Shown in pieces: positions 4,936-34,035 of a DNA stretch of 34,035 bases (position 1 is the first letter of the stretch; every line of letters starts with the position of its first letter). Under the pieces are notes generated by a model that was not told the DNA's origin, searched no databases, and was given only the letters and a program-made list of their open reading frames with translations. Position numbers and translations under genes: made by a program. The DNA lies in assembly GCA_023515795.1 (NCBI GenBank), contig JALGPX010000118.1, positions 1 through 34,035 of the forward strand. Reading direction: 5' to 3'. Source of the stretch: Amoeboaphelidium occidentale. Taxonomy: Eukaryota.

Positions 4936-7626
4936 TTATGTTTTGTCTTCGTTCTGAAGTTGTTTCATCCATAATTCATGGTATAATCCGTTCTGACCTA
5001 AAGCCATCAACTCTGCATGACTACCTTTCTCTGCAATGTTTCCATCCTTGATCACAAGAATCATGTCAGCTCCTACGATAGTGCTCAATCTATGCGCGAC
5101 CACAAGTGTAGTTCTTCCTGATGTCATCTTGTTTAGCTCTCCTTGAATGGCTCTTTCTGTGTTTGTATCTAATGCGGAAGTTGCTTCATCGAGCAAAACT
5201 ATCTTTGGATCTTTTAATAGTGTTCTTGCAATTGCAACACGCTGTTTTTCGCCGCCACTCAATCTAAGGCCTCTCTCGCCTACTTTGGTTTGATATTGCT
5301 CGGGGAAACTCATAATCTTTTCATGTATCTGTGCCATTTGTGCCGCTTTTTGTACTTCCTCCACAGATGCATCCGTTTTACCGTACCTGATATTGTACAA
5401 GACGGTATTATTGAAAAGAACAGTATCTTGTGGAACAACTCCCATCGATCGTCGAAGAGAGCTTTGAGAAACGTATCGAATGTCTTGACCATCAATTAGA
5501 ATTCGGCCTTTGGATACGTCGTAAAAGCGAAATAGTAATCTGAGTATAGTAGATTTTCCACCGCCCGAAGGTCCAACCAGTGCAACTGTTTTTCCAGGTG
5601 GAATTTCGAATGATATGTTTGAGACGCTTGCTGAATTCGGTTTTGCAGGATCATAAGTAAAGGAGACGTCCTCAAAAACCACATGCCCTGAATTGACAAC
5701 TAAACTTGTACAGCNNNNNNNNNNNNNNNNNNNNNTTTTCCAGGTGGAATTTCGAATGATATGTTTGAGACGCTTGCTGAATTTGGTTTTGCAGGATCAT
5801 AAGTAAAGGAGACGTCCTCAAAAACCACATGCCCTGAATTGACAACTAAACTTGTACAGCCCGGCAAATCTTTGACTTCTACATTCTCATAAAGAAGTTT
5901 TGTCATTTTCTCCATGTCGATAAAATTCTGATTTATCACACCTACGAAATAAGATTGTTAGTCAAAACATCAGCTTACGATAAATGGTTCCAAACCATCC
6001 AAGAGGCTGGTACAGCTGTTGCAAATAAGTGATAAAAAGAACAAAATCTCCGACATTCAAAGTGCCTTGAATTACTCGAGCAACACACAGCAATCCCCCT
6101 GTAAGTAATCCAAGAGTAATTACAAAGTTTTGAGCACAATTCAAAACTTTGAGTGATAATTGTGAAACTAAATCAGCAGTTTGGTATTGCATGATGCAAT
6201 CTTTGTAATTGTCAACTTCAAACTCTTCGTTTCCATAATACTTGACAGTTTCGAAATTCAATAATGAATCAACTGCTCTCGTATTGGTCTTGTTGTCTAA
6301 ATCAATCATTCTTCTTCTGTACTTGGTCCTCCATTCTGTGATATAGATAGTGACAACTAAGTAGAATACCATAGTAACAAGAACAATGATGCCAAAGTAA
6401 ATATCAAACTGAACGACAAAGAAAACAACAGCAATAGAAATATCAGCAAGAACCGGAACAATATTGAACCAGAGATAAGAAAGTAAGGAAGTAATCGCTT
6501 GAGTTCCTTTATCCATTACTCGTAGAACTTCACCAGTTTTTCTGTTAAGATGCCATCTTAGCGATAGATTATGCAAATGTCTAAACACGTGTATAGAAAC
6601 TTCTCTAGTTGCATACTGTTCCACCGGTATCCACAGAGATGACTGAAGAATTGAAACTAAACCATTGCTTCCTTGAAAGAAGTAGAAGAGCACGTACAAA
6701 AGGACAGGCTGTAAAGGAAACTCAATCTTTTTGGTACCATCTTTTGAAGGCGTAAGAGCATCAACTATACGTTTGTACTGTAGAGGCATAAGTAGATTTA
6801 CAAACCTGCCTGCAACCATCAGCGCCACACAAGAATAAATCAATAGTTGAAGTTTCAATTTCCCTTTTGGCCATACGAATGGGAGGACGTCTTTGATCTT
6901 CTTTGCGATATTTGAGAATGCAGATTTTCTACTATTGACGTATTCCTGGTCCAAGAACTCATCTCCAGCACCTTCTTCTGCTCGTGCATCATCTTGCTCA
7001 GCAGCCAAAAGCGTGTAGGAGGACAATGAGCACCAGTCAAGTAAAACGAAAATCATCAGCACAATAGACATGAGCACCTTGAGAGCAGTGAAGCCCAAAT
7101 CAGCCGCGGTGTTGTTGTCAAAGAGGTCAGGGTCTGCGCTAGAAGGAGTGAGCACCATCTTGATACGAGTGAATAAGACATAACCATCACACACTAATGC
7201 CAAAGTAGAAAAGCACAACAGACTTGCATTCACCAGAGCTAATCTCATCTCTACTATATTCACTTTGTACAGAAAGAACCATGATAAACCGTTGAAAGCG
7301 TTCACAGCGACGTAATAATAAGAACTTTTACCAGAAGAAGAACCACTGGAAAATAGAATTATCAACTGCATAATGGCTAATATGAAAGATAGAAAGCTCA
7401 TAGACAAAATAATCCGCGACCTCCAATTCAGAAAGCTCTTCTTTCCGAGCAAGTCTAAAGTGTGCGTGCTTTGTCGTGTGGAAGCATAAGTTGATTCTCC
7501 AAGTAGCCTGAACGTAATGTATAATGCAAGAGAGATAAGCAGTAAAGAACCACTTAAGACACTCTCCAGAAGACACGGGGCAATTCTTCCGTCATAGAAC
7601 AACGGATCAGCACAAAAACCAGACAT
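4936..7626 (-). CDS. HMT1: ABCB6/HMT1-type heavy-metal-tolerance ABC half-transporter; intron 5942-5978; artefactual duplication at the N gap
   Basis: N-terminal TMD0; [37 protein letters not shown]; Walker [10 protein letters not shown]; signature [23 protein letters not shown]. The 37-bp intron joins [15 protein letters not shown]. Confidence 0.9.
5590..5860. other. Assembly artefact: 125-bp overlap (5590-5714 = 5736-5860) across a 21-N gap
   Basis: The copies differ by one synonymous SNP (Pro CCG/CCA). Confidence 0.9.
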
Positions 7627-13721: not shown

Positions 13722-14090
13722 GCTTTCATGCTTAATTGGAGACTATTTAAGATCATTACGACACTTCCTGTGTAAGGATAATACAAGAACGCTTTTACAT
13801 AAAATACGCCGTCTGCCTCTTTCTAGTACGAGAAAGCTTGGCTTCATGCTTGCGATTGATTTGAAACATGCCGAAAAGCGAAACCAAGATCTTGTATGGG
13901 CTTACCAGAACAGTCTGGTATACATAATTAGCAATTCTACCTTTCGACATACTCTAATTGACTTGAAACACAAAGACTATGATTATTGTCAAGATGTACA
14001 CGTGATGATCAGCTATATGGAGTGTCGGCACGTGTAAAATTTGATCAGTTTTTAAGCAGCTCCTGACAATATAAAACTTTTTTTACAAAA

Positions 14091-14465
14091 ATGAAAGCAG
14101 CATTTATCGTTTTGTTTCTACTTGGTTCAGTTCTTACAGCTCCAGCCAAACAAGGGAAAGGTAAAGCGCCGTCAAGCAGCAGCAGTCTGGGAGCATCAAA
14201 AAGTCAAGGAGTCAACAAGTACTTGTTCAATAAGAAAGGAAGAGTCTATTGGCGTAATGCAGAAGTTGCTGCTCTTACAGCTGGTGTTACCGCAGGCGGT
14301 ATCATTCTCAACAACTACATCATGGCAGAAATTGACAAAACAAAGTTGAGAAATGAAATTCAAGAATTGAGAAACGCACCTGGCGCAACACCTCCAACAA
14401 CTTCTCAGCCTGTTCTGCCACCAGGCATTCAAGCTCCTCCTGGGATTACAAACGGAAGAGTCTAA
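14091..14465 (+). CDS. Small secreted protein A (124 aa), paralog of 14720-14974
   Basis: Signal peptide MKAAFIVLFLLGSVLTAP; shared core W.N.EVAA...GV..GG.ILNNYI..EI...L...IQ.LR. Confidence 0.8.
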   Translation: MKAAFIVLFLLGSVLTAPAKQGKGKAPSSSSSLGASKSQGVNKYLFNKKGRVYWRNAEVAALTAGVTAGGIILNNYIMAEIDKTKLRNEIQELRNAPGATPPTTSQPVLPPGIQAPPGITNGRV

Positions 14466-14719
14466 TCCTTAAAGTTCTTCATTCTGATTAAAGCGTTTGA
14501 CACGTCTCTTCATTAATAAAAAAATCGTCTATATTACGAGCTTGTTATCGACTTTATTTGCCTTTTACTGCTCGTATCTATTGAGCTGAGAACCAAGTTT
14601 TGAGCATTTTTTGCCGTAGCCCCTTTGATCGCTGTACATGTGATCATCACGTTGATATTTGCGTATTTTTCACAGGGGCCAGACTCTTAGCATTTCCTTT
14701 TCTAAAAACCGAGTTTGAA

Positions 14720-14974
14720 ATGAAATCATCTACTATCGCATTATGCTTAATTGGCTCTTCTGTTTTGGTAAATGCTGCTCCGACCAGAATGATGGACGGA
14801 ACTAAAGTTGGTCCAAAGCTATGGAAAAACTGGGAAGTAGCCGCAGTTGCAACCGGTGTCGCAACTGGTGGTGTCATACTAAATAATTACATCAAGTCTG
14901 AAATTAAGCAAGCCAGACTTCAAGATAAAATTCAAAGGCTTCGTGAAAGACCACCGACAAGTGGAACATTTTAA
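14720..14974 (+). CDS. Small secreted protein B (84 aa), paralog of 14091-14465
   Basis: ATG at 14720 gives signal peptide MKSSTIALCLIGSSVLVNAAP; same conserved core; AATAAA downstream. Confidence 0.8.
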   Translation: MKSSTIALCLIGSSVLVNAAPTRMMDGTKVGPKLWKNWEVAAVATGVATGGVILNNYIKSEIKQARLQDKIQRLRERPPTSGTF

Positions 14975-15154
14975 TATTTCGATTCGGTGCAGGGCATCGA
15001 GAAAATTAATCTTTCTTATTCAATAAAAACGCTTTACTTCAGTCACCGTTTAAAGTTTGTCAACTGAATATGTGCTGAAATGATCGAATCAATTTATGTT
15101 ACATCTCGCGAAACGTGGTAGCGATCATGCAGAGAATAATATTTTCATTGTGCC

Positions 15155-15607
15155 ATGATAATGCGACTCGTATACCATTGCCTTATGGTGTTTTATCTAC
15201 TTATGGATGGTATTATTTGTCCTGCTGTGAGGCCAGTCTCTATTACTCGTCCTCAATCTGTCAACTACCATCACGAAATATTGAAGAACAGCAACAATAT
15301 GAAGCAGCTTAAACTACTGGAGAATCGCGCGTTAAGCTCGAGAAGATATCAAGATGCGATCACGTTCAGAAATCAACTATTGAAAGAACAAAGTTTCATG
15401 GAACAGAACCGTTTGCAAATCGCAAAAGCAAACAGAGTTTCTGTTGCTGGTGGCGCTTTGCTGGCAGGCGGTGTTGGTTTATCTTCTTTAGTTGTGGGAA
15501 CTCTTGTTGGCGCAAAACTAGCGATTGAAGCTTCAAAACATCAAGACAATAATTCTACGGTTGCTGCATCTTCAAATTCAACTGAAACAGCAACAAAAAA
15601 GCAATAA
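15155..15607 (+). CDS. Small putatively secreted or membrane protein C with a Gly-rich hydrophobic segment
   Basis: Hydrophobic N-terminus, a helical middle, then VAGGALLAGGVGLSSLVVGTLVGAKLA. No family recognised. Confidence 0.6.
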   Translation: MIMRLVYHCLMVFYLLMDGIICPAVRPVSITRPQSVNYHHEILKNSNNMKQLKLLENRALSSRRYQDAITFRNQLLKEQSFMEQNRLQIAKANRVSVAGGALLAGGVGLSSLVVGTLVGAKLAIEASKHQDNNSTVAASSNSTETATKKQ

Positions 15608-18017: not shown

Positions 18018-20039
18018 ATGAATCGCGGTCGAGGACACAACAGAAATAATAACAGAGGCGGCGGTAACCGTTCGTCATATCATCACCAAAATCATCAGCA
18101 GCAGCAACCTGTAGCGCCTCAAAGCGGAATGGCCCCGCCTGTTGACCCTGTAATGCTTCAAATGTTGTTGACCCAAAACCCAGCGGCTGCAGCTGCTTTA
18201 GGACAAGCGGGACAGTATTCTTTAGGCGTACCTCAATTCCCCCAGATGGGATCTCAAGCGCAGCTTAACAATTGGATGCCTCCTGGCGGCGTAGCACCAC
18301 CTGCTCATCAACCTCAGCAAGATTATGGAAATCAACAACAATTCCCTTATCAGCCTCAAATTGATCCTCAACAATATGCTATTTGGTATGCGTCAATGCA
18401 GCAGCAACAACAACAGCAACAAACTCAGCCGTACATGCAAGCACCTCCTCCGATCGGTAGGCCTCCGCTGCCTCAACAACAACAGATGCCTTATAATCAG
18501 GATGGCGCAGGTAGAGGTGGTAACCAAGGCCAAATGCATTCCGGAAACTCTGCAGTTAGTATGCCATTGAATGATGACGGAGATGAAATTCCAAGTAGAA
18601 CGCTGTTTATTAGGAATATTGAGTACACCATCACCTGTGAGCGAGTTCGACAGGATTTCAGTCAATTTGGTGACATTAAGGAGTGCTATTTTCTGCAGAA
18701 TAAGAAAGGTCTGGCTTTCTGTACGTTTTTTGATATTCGCGCTGCTGCGAAAGCCAAGGAAACCATGCAGAATTACAAGTATAACGGTCGACCAGTAGAC
18801 GTTCATTATTCTGCGCCTAAGGAAGAAGATTTAAATGCCAAGAAATGTGAGAAGGATAAAAATCAAGCGTCTTTGTTGGTGAGCTTAGATTTGAATGATA
18901 AATCCCTTGGTGACGCTGATCCAAGTAAGCTTGTTAATTTGTCAAGACAATTCATAATTTTCCCTTATTTAGCTACCATTGACAATGAGCAATTGAAGCA
19001 ATTCTTAGAACAATATGGTGAAGTGAAAAGAGTGAGATATTTCAAGGAGTTTCAAAGAAAACGTTTTGTTGAATTCTACGATATTCGTGGCTGTGAAGCT
19101 GCATATGATAATGCTCAAGGCGCACCTTTCCAAAATGGGACGCTCCGATTTGAACTTGCATGGGATGTTCCACAGAAGATGAGACTAGAATTCGTGAGAG
19201 CAACTCAAGTTAAACGTGCACAAAGAGACTATTTGCATAAGCAAGGAAAAGGCATACCTGCACATCCTCCTAACATGATGCCAATGCCTAATTCTTATTC
19301 TTCGGGACCTCAGAACAAAAGAAAAATGGATCATGGGAGTGATGATAGTCGTGGTGGAAACAAGAGGAACTACAGACAACAAGGGTATCAACAGTCTCAT
19401 GGAACAGCACCAACCGGTTATTCTTCTGTACCTGTTCCGCCAGTTCCCGTCGCTGTTCCTCCACCTATGAATCACGGTTTGGTACCTTCTTACAGCGTGT
19501 CAGGATGGGATAATAGCGGCATACCTCAAGATAAACCGGCTCCTCCAGTCTTACCGGTCGTTCAGCAGCCAATTGTGTCGCCTATAACGGCACCTCCACC
19601 GCCTTTTGGTAATCAGCAAAATGAAACGAAACCATCTCTGCCGAAACAAGCAGCACAACCAGCATTTGATCCTCAGAAGTTAATGAGCTTGATTTCTAAA
19701 GGAAGCCTTCCAACTCCAGCAAGTTCTGTTACAAAAGAAAGTGAAGCAAAGAAGGAAAATAGCAATGGTGAAACTAAGAGTGAAGAAGTGAACAAATCGA
19801 CGGAAAAGTCCAGTGAACAGGATAATAATCAACTGAGCCAAATATTAGGTTTAATTAGTAGTGCTGCAGCATCATCTAGCAGTGTAAAAAATAGGACCAC
19901 TGATACTAAACCTAAATCCCCTGAAAGGCCAAAAGACCCTAGACTTGCTCAAGTCGCGAGTTCTAGCGTGCCTGCTTTAGAACTTTTAACTACAAAGGAA
20001 ACTAAAGAACCTAGCAGTGATGGCGAAGTTTACGATTAG
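18018..20039 (+). CDS. Mei2/AML-like two-RRM RNA-binding protein with a Q/P-rich low-complexity N-terminus; probable in-frame intron 18925-18972
   Basis: PSRTLFIRNI, FFDIRAAAKA, DVHYSAPK, NQASLLV and FVEFYDIR resemble Mei2-family RRM1/RRM2. No RRM3 motif recognised. Confidence 0.75.
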   Translation: MNRGRGHNRNNNRGGGNRSSYHHQNHQQQQPVAPQSGMAPPVDPVMLQMLLTQNPAAAAALGQAGQYSLGVPQFPQMGSQAQLNNWMPPGGVAPPAHQPQQDYGNQQQFPYQPQIDPQQYAIWYASMQQQQQQQQTQPYMQAPPPIGRPPLPQQQQMPYNQDGAGRGGNQGQMHSGNSAVSMPLNDDGDEIPSRTLFIRNIEYTITCERVRQDFSQFGDIKECYFLQNKKGLAFCTFFDIRAAAKAKETMQNYKYNGRPVDVHYSAPKEEDLNAKKCEKDKNQASLLVSLDLNDKSLGDADPSKLVNLSRQFIIFPYLATIDNEQLKQFLEQYGEVKRVRYFKEFQRKRFVEFYDIRGCEAAYDNAQGAPFQNGTLRFELAWDVPQKMRLEFVRATQVKRAQRDYLHKQGKGIPAHPPNMMPMPNSYSSGPQNKRKMDHGSDDSRGGNKRNYRQQGYQQSHGTAPTGYSSVPVPPVPVAVPPPMNHGLVPSYSVSGWDNSGIPQDKPAPPVLPVVQQPIVSPITAPPPPFGNQQNETKPSLPKQAAQPAFDPQKLMSLISKGSLPTPASSVTKESEAKKENSNGETKSEEVNKSTEKSSEQDNNQLSQILGLISSAAASSSSVKNRTTDTKPKSPERPKDPRLAQVASSSVPALELLTTKETKEPSSDGEVYD

Positions 20040-20104
20040 GGCATAGTAATAAATGTGACAGAGATTAAGATTGCGACGAGGAGTAACTTGTTTTATTCTC
20101 GCGG

Positions 20105-20173
20105 ATCCGGTCGGTGTTGTCTGGAAAATCCGGTCGGTGCGAGCAGCTTACCGGATTGAGCCGGATTACACCG
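20105..20173. repeat. GC-rich direct and inverted repeat cluster (candidate transposon left end)
   Basis: ATCCGGTCGGTG at 20105 and 20128; CCGGATT at 20151 and 20161; 20127-20134 pairs with 20150-20157; 20112-20117 pairs with 20168-20173. Confidence 0.65.
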
Positions 20174-20328
20174 TATTTAGCCTTAAACCAATAGAGCTCA
20201 AGCGTACTAGACTAGTATCACCCCCTACCATACCCGGCTATAGATTATACCTGATATCTACCGGAAGGAAGGGTTACTGTGGTCACTAGCATCACTAGGA
20301 GCCATCTGACCATATGTCCTGCACATCC

Positions 20329-20511
20329 TGTTGAGAGTGCTTGAACCTTGACCACCACCATGATCTCCATTACATGAAACAGTACCGAAACTGTACAATA
20401 TTACACAACCAATAGTAAAACAATATCTGAAACTGTGTCCATTAACCATGAATATTTATGCACAGTCAGAATTAATCACAATAAAACAAGTGATAAATCG
20501 TAATTACAACA
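20329..20511 (+). mobile_element. 5' LTR of a Ty1/Copia retrotransposon (183 bp)
   Basis: Starts TGTTG and ends CAACA (terminal inverted repeat); AATAAA at 20480; followed immediately by a PBS and a gag ATG. No second LTR in the window. Confidence 0.8.
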
Positions 20512-20525
20512 CGTTATCAGCACCA
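20512..20525 (+). promoter_or_regulatory. Primer-binding site CGTTATCAGCACCA, complementary to the anticodon arm of tRNA-Ile(IAU)
   Basis: Reverse complement of the eukaryotic tRNA-Ile segment UGGUGCU-IAU-AACG, with I34 pairing to C. Abuts the LTR end. Confidence 0.7.
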
Positions 20526-20528
20526 ATA

Positions 20529-20830
20529 ATGAACTCCAAAGATAAAATTCTTGATAAAACCATCATGAAGTACAATGGAAACAACTTCTCCCTGTTCGAG
20601 AATCGTATCTCCGAATTACTTGAAGCCAACGGTCTTGAAGGGTTCTTGAATGATTCAGAACCTGAACCTGCATTGCCTGATAATCCCACGGATGCCCAAA
20701 AAAAAGACATACTCTATGGAAACAACGTAAAGCGCAAGCATTAGTTCTTATCAAAAACAACTGTGATGAGATGCGGCAAGCCATGGTTCAAACTTTGAGG
20801 GATCCTAAAGAACTTATGAATACAATTGTG
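20529..20830 (+). pseudogene. gag: Copia gag N-terminal fragment (DUF4219/Retrotran_gag_2-like), frameshifted at A8 20698-20705 and truncated
   Basis: KYNGNNFSLFENRISELLEANGLEGFLNDSEPEP, then in the -1 frame RHTLWKQRKAQALVLIKNNCDEMRQAMVQTLRDPKELMNTI. Both halves fit the Copia gag pattern. Confidence 0.8.
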
Positions 20831-20832
20831 CC

Positions 20833-21357
20833 ATGCAAAGAGAAATGGACCGCGTCTTGAATGCATTGATTTCAATGGTTGGCTTGAAACCGAACCAGAA
20901 AGTCAAAGGTAACAAGCGCATATATGTTGGAGTTGGAACTGGAGACTTCGATTCGACTGGCTCGTTTCATACCTCTTTCCTTAAATACTTTGTGAGAAAA
21001 GCAAAACCAATGGGTCTTACTATACTTGGTGTTGATGAATACTTTACTTCTCAAAAATGTGTTCGTTGTCACGACTTCACAGAATCACTGTCAATGAGAG
21101 CAAAACATTGCCCTAAATGCAAGGTGGTATTTCATAGAGATATATTGGCTGCTGGTAATATGTGTGCTGCATTATCTGCGATGTTGGAGAAGGGTGAACG
21201 TCCTGAATATTTGTGCAAGCCTCCTGATGATGAAACAGAAGAAGCGACAGAAGAACCTGTTCAAGATGTCAAGAAGAGTAGTATCAAAGGGCGCAACCCG
21301 AAAGAGAAAGACAAGCAAGAGGGTTTAAGAAGAAGCTCTCGACACAAAAAGCGTTAG
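20833..21357 (+). pseudogene. Fanzor (Fanzor1-like, TnpB-derived RNA-guided nuclease) C-terminal fragment, 174-aa open frame
   Basis: YVGVGTGDF; RuvC-II VDEYFTSQKC with the Glu next to the zinc finger; CVRC...CPKC; RuvC-III HRDILAAGNM. REC/WED and RuvC-I are missing. Confidence 0.87.
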
Positions 21358-21359
21358 AA

Positions 21360-21450
21360 AATACCGCAAAAAAGAAAAAAGGCCAACTGTCACGGAATCT
21401 GAACCGGATCGGCAGTCGGGAAACCCTTTTTAACATTGATCATGGATCAA
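21360..21450 (+). ncRNA. Candidate Fanzor omegaRNA scaffold / element right end plus flanking guide
   Basis: Directly 3' of the Fanzor stop. Nested stems: AAAAAGG 21376-82 with CCTTTTT 21425-31; ACTGTC 21386-91 with GGCAGT 21411-16; ATCTG 21397-401 with CGGAT 21405-09. Function is inferred only. Confidence 0.45.
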
Positions 21451-21810
21451 GTTGTCAGATTCAGTGGAACACTTATAAAAACTATCCATAGAGTCAGTTA
21501 CAGAATGCCTCAGATCGGCATATTGGATATCAAAGTATTTGCGAAACTAATAGAGGAACTATTCAAGTTGAAGAAATATATGGGCATCATCACTGTCATT
21601 TTCTCAATGATCAAGAGTATCACAGTGCGGAAACGGACAGAAGATCGTTGTTGTAAGGAATGCCAGCTGAGTAAAATGAGAGAAGAGAAGCTCAAGCTTA
21701 TTCTTTTTGTGCTTATGACTAAGAAGAATCAGGCGAAACGATGACAAGACCTCTCCATCTTCATGTGACTGAATTCTCACATTGATTTACTTAGACTTTT
21801 TACGTATATT

Positions 21811-24144
21811 CTATTGATCTTCTTCCGATTCTTTAATAAACAGGCTCTGTACTTCATTTCTTACATCTTGTAAGCGTTGGACTTGTCCTAGTTTGACCGA
21901 TAGCCCATCGCATGCTAATCCAACAGGAAAGTTGGTTTTGAGTTTTTCCTTTCCAGCTGAAGAATCCATGGCTTTTGGAAACCTTTGACTGAAATGTGTT
22001 AGCAATACTTCACTTGCTTCCATATCCCTCCCAATGTTCACTGCTTCACTGTAGGTGCTATGCATGCGCGCTTTGGCCTCTTGTTTCAAATCATCACTAA
22101 AAGTTGCTTCGTGTATTAAAAGAGTCTTTCCATTGAACCCATTACTTCTTAGTTTCTTAACACTGTTTACAAGATGGTGACATGGTCTGGTATCTCCTGA
22201 ATAAGTCACGGCAAACTGATTTTCTCCTTTGCTTCTTGCCATAGTAATTCCGTACGCATCCTCGCAATGGAACACAGGGAAACTTTCAATGGAATCTAAT
22301 CCAAGAACTTCTGCTGCGTCTTTCAACTCGCTCAGCGTTTGGTTATTATCTGTCATATTATTGTAAGTAATTTGATCACAAGTGATGAATTTCATTCTGG
22401 TCTCTGGCAAATCTTGGCACTGAGCATAGTCTCGAAGAAAAGCAGGAATTCCTTTCGGTGCAATAATGTGTAAAGTACTTTCCGTTTTTTCGGTAGCTTT
22501 CGACCATTCCAATAATACTCTAAGGAAACCCATATGATGGTCAGCATGCAAATGACTAACAACAATGCACTTCAATTGAGATAACGCATTCTTGATCATA
22601 TCTGGGCCAAATATTCTAGCCAACTGACCATAGCTTCCTTCGCCAACATCTAAAATAGCAGCACCTTTAGGAAAATTAACATAAATACCACTGACATTAC
22701 GATATTTTGAAGGAAGCATAGAGCCAGTACCTAGAAAAAGCACTCTGCAATCTGCCCTAGGATTTTGCGATATCATATCTGCTTTTCTATCACCAGAATA
22801 TAATCGAAACTTTGCTTCAGCTGGCCTAGCTTCCTCGTGGTTTAAGAATGACTTTGGCGTCACATCATAACGCAGAAGCAGGTTGCCACACTCAAAATTG
22901 AACCTAGCCTTCTTTCTAACAGATTCAATTTTTTCTTTGAAATCCTTCTTGCTCTGATGATACATAATTGGAAATAATTCTTTATCAATGCGATGTAGAT
23001 TAGTTTGCTGATTTGAAGCAGCTGTAAACTGCGGATAATCTCTGTTTGTATTCTTTGATAAAAGAATGTGTTCAACTTTAGTGCCGAATTGTTGAACAAA
23101 ACTATTGTACTCTTCATTAAATAAAAGCTGTTCATCATCTAGAATATGAACAATTGAAGAAACTTCTGCTCTTTTATCCAAAAGGGATTCTATATGAGAA
23201 TTAGCCAAAGATTTAATGTAGTGCCTTGATGGAAGGTGAAGAATTAGAATAATTTTTCCGGGTTGTGGAGGGCCAATAACATCTTGCGGTTTTATGATTC
23301 TCCCATCATTCAATGTTATTTCCTCGCCCTTCATCAGATTGCCTCTAATGGAACCATTAGGAACACCCAATTCTTTCGCCTTCTTGTTATCAAACTTTCC
23401 AATTAAATCATGCCCTTGTAGAATGTAACAAAGAGCACTATCATCTGGATACGTTTTAGGCAACTCTCCTTCTACAGCTGGAATAGGCCTACATGCAGAA
23501 TCTTCGCGACTGTGAACATGCTCCGACGTCCCAGAATCAACTTCCTTAGTCGTATTGGCATCTTCATCATGAGAAGCAAACAATCTACTCACGACTTCCT
23601 TGTTCTTTCTTACAGCATCCAAATGGCTTTCGTCGATAACTCTGAAATCATCATCCCTTCTAATAGGCACAGCCAGAATCTTAACATTCTCATCCTCGTA
23701 CTCATGCCCTTCAACACCAAACTCAAAGGTACTCAAAGGAAACTCTGGCCTGGACACAAAATGCCTGAATGACGCCATAAAGTGCGTTAAATTCGGTGGA
23801 CCAAAGAACCGAAACCCTTTGCGCGACATCGTTGCAGTCGCACCTTGAGATGTTTGATCGCTCTGTTGCGCTTGAATGCTATCCTGTATAGAACCAGACA
23901 TGGTCAAAATCAATCCGGGTATACCACCTGTATGTCTCCAGTCCATGTGTGTAATGAATATATTGCGCAACTTTCCCATTCTGATCTTGTGCGAGGACAG
24001 TAACCTCTGCGTGCCTTCACCACAATTGAACAGATACCTCTGAGAGTCAAAATGAACAACTATGGATGGCGTCGTGTCTGAAGTGTATGTGCCTAAGATC
24101 TGAATGTAAGATTTCATATTCCGTCTGCTTCTCAAAAATTGCAT
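21811..24144 (-). CDS. TRZ1: tRNase Z, long form (ELAC2/Trz1)
   Basis: YLFNCGEGTQR; exosite GKFDNKKAKELGVPNG; FLGTGSMLPSKYRNVS; SHLHADHH; YSGDTRPC; HEATF; HST; LTHFSQR. Confidence 0.95.
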   Translation of the reverse strand: MQFLRSRRNMKSYIQILGTYTSDTTPSIVVHFDSQRYLFNCGEGTQRLLSSHKIRMGKLRNIFITHMDWRHTGGIPGLILTMSGSIQDSIQAQQSDQTSQGATATMSRKGFRFFGPPNLTHFMASFRHFVSRPEFPLSTFEFGVEGHEYEDENVKILAVPIRRDDDFRVIDESHLDAVRKNKEVVSRLFASHDEDANTTKEVDSGTSEHVHSREDSACRPIPAVEGELPKTYPDDSALCYILQGHDLIGKFDNKKAKELGVPNGSIRGNLMKGEEITLNDGRIIKPQDVIGPPQPGKIILILHLPSRHYIKSLANSHIESLLDKRAEVSSIVHILDDEQLLFNEEYNSFVQQFGTKVEHILLSKNTNRDYPQFTAASNQQTNLHRIDKELFPIMYHQSKKDFKEKIESVRKKARFNFECGNLLLRYDVTPKSFLNHEEARPAEAKFRLYSGDRKADMISQNPRADCRVLFLGTGSMLPSKYRNVSGIYVNFPKGAAILDVGEGSYGQLARIFGPDMIKNALSQLKCIVVSHLHADHHMGFLRVLLEWSKATEKTESTLHIIAPKGIPAFLRDYAQCQDLPETRMKFITCDQITYNNMTDNNQTLSELKDAAEVLGLDSIESFPVFHCEDAYGITMARSKGENQFAVTYSGDTRPCHHLVNSVKKLRSNGFNGKTLLIHEATFSDDLKQEAKARMHSTYSEAVNIGRDMEASEVLLTHFSQRFPKAMDSSAGKEKLKTNFPVGLACDGLSVKLGQVQRLQDVRNEVQSLFIKESEEDQ

Positions 24145-32214: not shown

Positions 32215-33503
32215 TTAGTTACCACCTTGTTCGTGTTCATCAGATGATGGAGATGGTTTTGAAATACCTAGATAACTACCAAGAATATGTTTTGTGCGTG
32301 ATACTACCTCAATGCTCTCAGTGGAAGCATCAATAACACTAATAGATTTCTGAGTCAATGCTCGGACGTTTGCAAGTAAAGCCTCGACAGAAACGGTTTG
32401 CTAAAATGTCAAATTGTCATTAGTGTAAACTTACGCCTTCACCAGAAGAAGTTTGTTCATTGAACTTCTTTAAAGCGTCTTCCCAACGTTTGGAAGCAGT
32501 AGAAACAACATCAGAAACACCTAAACGTTAAAACTAACATGCTGGGAATGAGTAACTTACGTTCTTGAATATTAAAAGGGAGAGAAGGAACACGGTTGCG
32601 AACGGCATCAATGGAGTGAGTTACAGAGGATCTAACTTCAGCCAAAGCTTCAACCAATCTGTTCTGAACAATTAACACCGACTCAAAAGTAGGCTTCGCA
32701 ATCTTTTCCATTCCAAAATCTTTAGCATCTTGAACAGAAGTAGCCAACTTTTCTCTATCTGAAACAGTCTCTTGCAAATACTGTTGCGTTGCAGCCAAAG
32801 TTTCTCTGAGCTTCTGCGACGATGCCTCCAACTGAGCTTGATAATGCTGCAAAATTTCCCATGTAGCTCTCAAGTGCAATAATTCTTCAGTGCTTTCGTA
32901 TGCCTTCTGAGAGCGCGAAGTAATCACATTATAAACTCTTGTGCCAGCTTTCGTTGAGACTTCGTAAGCACGTTTTAAAGGAGCAGGTCTTGGTCCAACA
33001 GTAGATTCATTCTCAGGGAAGTCTTCAGTGGAAGCCTCGTCAGAAAGGTTGTCATTGGCATCAACAAACTGCTGCTCATCAAATTTGCGCTGTTCCTGTT
33101 CCGACGCAGGCAAAACCAAATCAACAACGTAGTCGACACCGTTAACAGCCTTCTCCAGCGGACTCAATAAAACCTGTTCAGCTCTCAGTGCAAACTTTGT
33201 TCCGGACTCGACAACGTTCTCTGCAACATCGACCAAACGATTTCCAACAGAATCGACTCTGTCATGGTACGGCTCGACAGTTTTTAAAACAGGCTTGACT
33301 ACAGCAGCGGCAACAGAAGCGGCAGTATCGGCAGCAAATTTCGTATAAGGATTGCTCTCTACGACAGGCAGAATCTTCTGATTCAACACCTCTAAGCTTT
33401 TGTTAACATACGAAATGTTGGCAACACGCTGAACGAATTCGTAGTCTGTTAATGCGAGTTCAGTGGAGGTCTGCGGTAATGTTGACTCAACTGGTTTAAC
33501 CAT
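32215..33503 (-). CDS. Perilipin/PAT-like lipid-droplet protein; introns 32521-32560 and 32401-32434
   Basis: FVQRVANISYV...PYHDRVDSVGNRLVDVAE and VDYVVDLVLP resemble PAT-family motifs; amphipathic helical composition. Two GTAAGT introns extend the frame to TAA at 32215. Confidence 0.65.
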
Positions 33504-34035
33504 TTTATGATTTTCTCTTGTTGTCAGTTGAAAGAGAAATTCCTGCGTTCCGGTTTGTGGTGCGTTCTGATCAGGTCTGCTGATCGGCAGCCAATTTTCA
33601 ACACGGTGAATGGGAAATTCGTCAAAGTCACAAGACCCGTGAGCGCGTGCGTAGATAGCTGGTGATTGAAGGACGATGCGTAACAGTGTGATTATGAGCG
33701 CAGAGATGCGTTCAGGTGTGTTTAAGTAACGGTTTATCTTCGGAAAAAGCATAGTAAAACTTTTGATAAGGAAGCTTTACTTACTGCGCCATAGTTTAAA
33801 CGCAGCCTGTTTCAATTAAAATATGGCTTCTTAATGTACTAAGGAGCGTGGCTTAGTTCTATTAGAAGAAATTGCTTGTGAGGCAGATAAAGAGGTTTTA
33901 CCCCGCATAAAATCAAGTTATCATGCTAGCCCCGCAAGCGGAGCAAGCTTGTCTGTTCGCGTAGAAGAGAATGGAACTCCTACTTGAAGTGGGCTGTTGA
34001 CGCATTCTTACTGTGTAGCACTGGAGTCAAGAATG

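Follow-up and report, generated by a model that had tools for sequence, protein, structure and literature searches.

The window analysed here, a stretch of 34,035 nucleotides from contig JALGPX010000118.1 of Amoeboaphelidium occidentale, is gene-dense eukaryotic DNA using the standard code. A gap of 1771 bp separates an RRM gene ending at 20039 from a tRNase Z gene ending at 21811, whereas the other intergenic gaps of the window (16 listed) measure 13-571 bp. Within this gap, an open reading frame on the forward strand (20833-21357) encodes 174 amino acids followed by a stop codon and carries GTGDF at residue 35, VDEYFTSQKC at residue 67, CxxC at residues 76 and 93, HRDILAAGNM at residue 101 and RRSSRHKKR at residue 166. 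A first-pass annotation made from the letters of the DNA had described this frame as the remnant of a Fanzor nuclease, and all seven motifs quoted there were found in it. The frame matches the Pfam family PF07282 (Cas12f1-like TNB) with E=1.3e-11 and 44.9 bits at a cut-off of 26.3. As had been proposed, the glutamate is shifted next to the zinc finger: E69 stands six residues before C76 and aligns with RuvC-II (codon 21037-21039), and D103 aligns with RuvC-III (codon 21139-21141). The spacing of E69, C76/C79, C93/C96 and D103 is that of the rearranged RuvC-II pattern of Yoon 2023, in which, according to the accessible text, a Glu six residues before the first CxxC is followed by CxxC-x(12-18)-CxxC and then by an Asp 4-8 residues on (PMC10711439). 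The features of the locus are collected in Table 1.

Table 1. Features of the Fanzor locus, in positions of the window.
Feature	Position	Strand	Remarks
GC-rich hairpin, possible left end	20099..20180	+	four ATCCGG/CCGGAT copies; weak candidate
Candidate single LTR, copia-type	20329..20511	+	183 bp, TGTTG...CAACA
Primer-binding-site-like 14-mer	20512..20525	+	right after LTR end; half-tRNA-Ile
Copia gag, 5' piece	20529..20826	+	frameshifted, cut at Fanzor junction
Fanzor1 3' fragment	20809..21357	+	RuvC-II Glu, C4 zinc finger, RuvC-III Asp, acidic and basic tail
Candidate omegaRNA scaffold and putative right end	21340..21432	+	protein-level comparison only, one sister past the stop
Putative guide position, 14-15 nt, if the right end is 21432	21433..21447	+	by analogy with SpuFz1

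Of 320 candidates examined for longer relatives, 4 proteins were retained, and three of these carry the name A. occidentale. The fragment is 94% identical over 185 amino acids to P0002 (1047 aa) and 89% identical over 200 amino acids to its sister P0159 (1144 aa); given the PF07282 score and the identity to P0002, the Fanzor-type signal of the frame is, at the sequence level, far beyond chance. The homology starts at 20809, eight codons upstream of the ATG at 20833, and this start corresponds to residue 945 of P0159, in which the ATG of the frame is the internal Met953. The frames of P0159 and P0002 look intact, in line with the earlier suggestion that intact relatives may exist elsewhere in the genome. 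The nuclear-localization-like tail had also been pointed out; its basic stretch is indeed present and common to P0002, but it is only one variant of the C-terminus of the family, P0159 and P0005 ending otherwise. Neither the RuvC-I profile nor the profile of the N-terminal head described below matched in the six frames of the window, and the REC and WED lobes upstream of RuvC-II are absent from all six frames, as annotated. By comparison with its relatives, the window copy has lost 83% of the protein, including RuvC-I and one of the three catalytic residues, and it is predicted to be inactive on the basis of the RuvC mechanism, as the RuvC-I Asp is missing.

Relatives were collected with HMMER against cluster representatives (374 proteins at E<=0.001, 150 of which were listed). 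A family profile of 43 sequences from the matches listed had SpuFz1 as its best PDB match (E=4e-13), followed by ApmFz2, LaTranC, GtFz1 and others. When the AlphaFold model of P0002 (mean pLDDT 70) was used for a Foldseek search, SpuFz1, PpFz1 and GtFz1 filled ranks 1-7, and Cas12f, TnpB, FEN1 and Exo1 came next. The family of the fragment is already catalogued as Fanzor1 in published tables, in the form of hypothetical proteins: KAI3659068.1, which is P0002, is a row of Table S2 of Yoon 2023 as a Fanzor hit, and KAI3658640.1, KAI3658407.1 (P0161, 71% identical to the fragment) and KAI3661525.1 are among the rows listed with an FZ1 label in the tree table of Saito 2023. The sequence listed for KAI3658640.1 spans the same motif as the N-terminus of the window fragment. 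Together, the profile, the fold search and the published FZ1 label of a close sister support the assignment of the fragment as the C-terminal piece of a Fanzor1. The likeness to Fanzor1 suggested by the first-pass annotation was thereby corroborated, the best profile and structure matches being Fanzor1 and not non-RuvC zinc ribbons. A phylogeny, which had also been proposed, was obtained as a quick tree of 130 columns, restricted to proteins covering at least 105 profile positions (113 proteins, the window row and 10 viral rows). It places the window row in a clade of nine rows (SH-aLRT 100) with the head-bearing P0159, P0002 and P0161, all three from A. occidentale; the tree holds no named Fz1 or Fz2 reference rows.

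A reading of the fragment as Fanzor2, IS607-type TnpB or a non-RuvC zinc ribbon is hardly tenable and was rejected: the fragment alone as query does retrieve TnpB/Cas12f-type chains first, if weakly, but the SpuFz1 profile match, the Foldseek ranks and the FZ1 label all point to Fanzor1, and none of 359 candidates from the prokaryote genome collection matches the family. In a metagenome scan, nine loci were retained from 134 candidate stretches, all of them distant (best 24-51% identity in short segments) and without detectable DNA similarity to the element ends. One metagenome stretch (L123:1-2315) is a degenerate relative, apparently with introns, which matches P0002 residues 339-1000 in several frames. 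Viral contigs contributed 20 loci from 104 candidates with short TnpB-like matches only, and a head was found in none of these 20.

In common with SpuFz1 of Spizellomyces punctatus (PDB 8gkh; PMC10432273, accessible text), and also with GtFz1 and PpFz1, the fragment has a RuvC-II Glu displaced to six residues ahead of the zinc finger, the RuvC-III RD and a C-terminal RPE motif; the full-length parent has the same fold. SpuFz1 likewise occurs, as far as the available part of PMC10432273 describes it, in multiple copies with partial copies and retrotransposon insertions. Unlike SpuFz1 and other Fanzor1 proteins, the window copy consists of the last sixth only.

Upstream of the fragment, features of a copia-type retrotransposon were observed which the first-pass annotation had not mentioned. 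The candidate LTR has no second copy in the window according to self-BLAST, and with a single LTR there is no target-site duplication to examine. It is followed directly by a 14-mer of which 13 bases are complementary to the anticodon arm of tRNA-Ile(AAT), pairing with positions 28-41 of the tRNA in L017 and 29-42 in L072; the one mismatch is the wobble A, which is edited to inosine. Among the 120 loci bearing the tRNA motif used as query, two are tRNA-Ile. For the Bianca elements of the copia group, the accessible part of PMC6317226 describes half-tRNA-Ile as primer, together with A-to-I editing. The gag frame opens with an ATG at 20529 and is shifted in an A run at 20698-20705. In the ESM Atlas, the piece before the run scores 0.94 to a DUF4219 cluster (12% of its members), higher-ranked clusters having no name, and for the piece after the run, 18 of 30 named hits are Retrotran_gag_2 clusters, with a score of 0.92. 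DUF4219 followed by Retrotran_gag_2 is the domain order of copia gag. Searched separately, neither piece was detected by the Pfam HMMs, and the first piece, used as query for homologues, gave no match. The LTR ends, the primer site and the gag N-terminus are those of a Ty1/copia element as judged from the DNA, and they resemble Bianca elements in the TG...CA ends, the half-tRNA-Ile primer site and the order of DUF4219 and Retrotran_gag_2 (PMC6317226, accessible part). Unlike in Bianca, only the 5' 500 bp remain and pol is missing. No pol frame is found in the gap, and paired LTRs with a pol carrying integrase before RT are lacking, which makes this a remnant: the broken start of a copia-type retrotransposon likely lies upstream of the Fanzor fragment.

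The three coding pieces lie in three frames, and neither gag piece is in frame with the Fanzor frame; therefore, no gag-Fanzor fusion protein is encoded. The gag and Fanzor frames overlap plausibly over 20806-20826, which suggests a deletion by microhomology; the overlap is short and imperfect, with DPKELMNTIV in the gag frame and RTYEYNCAM in the Fanzor frame. The locus has the look of a nested insertion with a subsequent deletion: the Fanzor element, or the DNA next to it, likely received a copia-type retrotransposon, whose gag was afterwards brought up against the Fanzor tail by a likely deletion. With good confidence, the open reading frame is regarded as what remains of the 3' part of an apparently multi-copy Fanzor1 gene, joined to gag in this way and predicted to be dead.

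At the 3' side, the window translation rejoins P0159 at KKANCHGI, and the stop of the family, as in P0159, falls at 21400-21402. The read-through copy P0005 remains in step for ten codons past this stop, to about 21432, and then diverges. By analogy with SpuFz1, about 21432 is the likely right end. In SpuFz1, the omegaRNA comprises the right end plus 14-15 variable bases according to the accessible text of PMC10432273. Folding of the candidate omegaRNA is no better than that of its shuffles (z -0.85 to -1.58), Rfam gave three sub-threshold matches on the window and none that is real for the candidate, and the putative guide has no second match with up to three mismatches in the window. An 18-base pattern of the right end occurs at three viral loci, where the similarity does not extend further; these were taken for chance matches. 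The roughly 380 bp (21433-21810) that separate the likely right end from the stop of tRNase Z hold most of a 113-aa frame at 21403-21744, which has no Pfam match.

The left side of the element is marked at best by the GC-rich hairpin. This hairpin (20112-20173), from one of six stretches folded, reached z -2.40 with 4 of 200 shuffles folding as well. An 11-bp inverted match between the hairpin and 21403-21413 is equalled in 330 of 1000 shuffles and hence not significant. The window locus shows neither 30-nt terminal inverted repeats nor other convincing terminal repeats, and its one tandem repeat is trivial. Helitron2 elements end in asymmetric inverted repeats of 8-15 bp, have 5' and 3' hairpins and insert after TTTT, as given in the accessible part of PMC3627910. 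The window locus resembles the Helitron2-borne Fanzor1 elements CRe-1,2,3 (Bao and Jurka 2013; PMC3627910, same part) in a 5' hairpin, a short asymmetric inverted match and T-rich flanks; unlike in these, the inverted match does not exceed chance, 7-8 bp separate it from the T run, and no RepHel was seen. A Helitron2-type carrier for the Fanzor element is a lead only.

Three other explanations of the locus were weighed. The copy could be dead as a protein and still make an omegaRNA, perhaps driven by the LTR, that intact Fanzors load in trans. The 3' end kept in step with one sister copy to about 21432 speaks for this, as do the ghost loci of S. punctatus, which yield working omegaRNAs according to the accessible text of PMC10432273; the candidate omegaRNA, however, has no significant fold, and a young copy keeps its 3' end without selection. 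This possibility is considered unlikely, and it is compatible with the favoured sequence of insertion and deletion. Still less probable is an assembly join of two repeats at the gag/Fanzor junction, in which case the real Fanzor copy may be longer. The window does contain two N-flanked duplications (461-649 / 651-833 and 5590-5714 / 5736-5860), and P0001 and P0003 carry internal duplications, from which it appears that the assembly handles repeats badly; against this, 20040-21830 contains no N, and the short, imperfect overlap at the junction would be more in keeping with a deletion by microhomology than with a k-mer join. Finally, it is very improbable that a copia retrotransposon has taken up the Fanzor tail and carries it along, be it as a chimeric element or as a fusion protein of gag and Fanzor; the LTR, primer site, gag and Fanzor tail adjacent on one strand might speak for this. 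The two duplications, at 461-833 (189 bp) and 5590-5860 (125 bp) around N runs at 650 and 5715-5735, sit inside RPA1-like and ABC-transporter-like genes and are likely scaffolding artefacts.

The long relatives of the fragment consist of two domains, a second feature beyond the first-pass annotation. P0002 was aligned with 11 relatives of at least 1000 aa among the matches listed, length being the sole criterion, and all 12 carry an N-terminal nuclease of the FEN1/XPG type. Over its first 250 positions, the profile matches structures of FEN1, Rad2/XPG and Exo1 (E-values from 4e-17 to 1e-15), the best match being archaeal FEN1 (4e-17), followed by Rad2, Exo1 and human FEN1; the result is similar with P0159 as first sequence. 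The RuvC residues D, E and D are kept in all 12. The head shows the fold, the seven acidic metal-binding residues and the two basic gateway residues of FEN1/XPG nucleases: the seven positions, labelled by human FEN1 residue numbers, are acidic in 9, 10, 11, 11, 11, 11 and 12 of the 12 rows, the other rows having gaps that stem from short gene models, and one gateway position holds K (10 of 10 rows), the other R (9 of 10 rows). Every one of the 13 proteins with at least 750 aa before the C-terminal block has the head (12 of them built the profile), and 11 proteins outside the training set (5 + 6) match it. In the quick tree, which does not prove a single origin, the 18 head-bearing rows are scattered across the clade. 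The named members come from Amoeboaphelidium, Actinomortierella, Dissophora, Mortierella, Entomortierella, Linnemannia and Synchytrium. Metagenome proteins also belong to the family, and one of 1256 aa was recorded from three sources, which argues against a merger of gene models.

The head is missing from relatives of 500-750 aa (P0152, P0013, P0092 and others), whereas in P0168 it is present and the zinc finger is not; these may be partial proteins or fragments, although headless forms could also be natural. Pfam XPG_I exceeds its cut-off only in P0042, P0159 and P0168 among the proteins scanned. A profile search for more full-length fusions, limited to 7992 candidates, returned at least P0002 and the head-only P0168. 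The fusion of FEN1/XPG and Fanzor1, with both putative active sites conserved over a wide clade, appears to be a new Fanzor1 architecture. No description of it is contained in the accessible parts of PMC10711439, PMC10432273, PMC10530073, PMC3627910, PMC13565253 and PMC11423790, and nothing bearing on it in that of bioRxiv 10.64898/2026.06.03.729735. Searches of the open literature under XPG, PIN, flap endonuclease, FEN1, Exo1, Mortierella and TnpB-fusion did not find it either, the papers obtained being reviews or, judged by title, unrelated. The terms XPG and FEN1 are absent from the text-searchable supplements of PMC10711439, PMC10432273 and PMC10530073, and PIN occurs there in species names only.

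Two A. occidentale proteins were noticed in addition. KAI3658238.1 (1219 aa; Saito 2023 supplement) lies outside FZ1 in that tree, and its N-terminus by eye resembles FEN1/XPG (VDV, YESDS, SDADL, GCDNY); judging from it, an older fusion or two origins of the fusion are possible. P0161 combines a proline-rich, WH2-like host N-terminus of about 420 aa with a complete head plus Fanzor and is either a merged gene model or an insertion into a host gene.

The head aligns over about 250 positions with FEN1, XPG, Exo1 and GEN1 (PDB 1a76, 4q0r, 3qea and 8yjh), including the N-terminal MG, the acidic motifs and the H3TH. Unlike in that superfamily, the head of the parent is fused to a Fanzor, and it is absent from the window. 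No FEN1/XPG subfamily stands out, archaeal FEN1, Rad2, human FEN1 and Exo1 lying within a few orders of magnitude of each other. The parent also differs from other Fanzor1 proteins in size, with 1000-1300 aa including the head compared to 600-700 aa for most of them, as stated in the accessible part of PMC11423790.

For an intact parent of about 1100 aa, a mechanism can be proposed from SpuFz1 and TnpB. The right end of the element with flanking DNA would form the omegaRNA and guide the RuvC body, which would cut the empty insertion site as in SpuFz1. Restoration by gene conversion from the filled allele would then keep and spread the element, as in the homing model given in the accessible part of PMC13565253. 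The head might then trim or resect the 5' ends of the cut in such a way that repair copies the filled allele, to which we assign about an even chance; removal of flaps during transposition of the element itself is a less likely role, some other function is less likely again, and trimming of the 5' end of the omegaRNA appears the least likely. Tentatively, and with somewhat more doubt than belief, the parent could be viewed as a natural two-nuclease editor, in which an RNA-guided Fanzor1 and an active FEN1/XPG 5' nuclease, ancestral to the aphelid/chytrid/Mortierellaceae clade, cut, process the ends and force homing or copying of a Helitron2-like carrier.

The fragment itself is ordinary, broken Fanzor copies with retrotransposon insertions being already known. 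The parent matters more: among the possible roles of Fanzors for eukaryotic transposons, one becomes directly testable in a clade where a nuclease for 5' end processing is part of the same polypeptide, namely cutting followed by resection in favour of repair from the filled allele. If both domains are active, it would be a natural counterpart to the fusions of a nuclease with an exonuclease by which editing outcomes are biased. P0159 looks complete and the A. occidentale copies are closely related, which provides a ready test case.

Elsewhere in the window, a reverse-strand region at 32511-33776 has a weak perilipin-family match (E=4e-5, under the cut-off). Three small tandem genes at 14067-15607 have signal-peptide-like N-termini, a glycine-rich hydrophobic stretch and no Pfam match; the first two share the motif W.N.EVAA...G..LNNYI..EI, and the three genes possibly represent a secreted family of this algal parasite.
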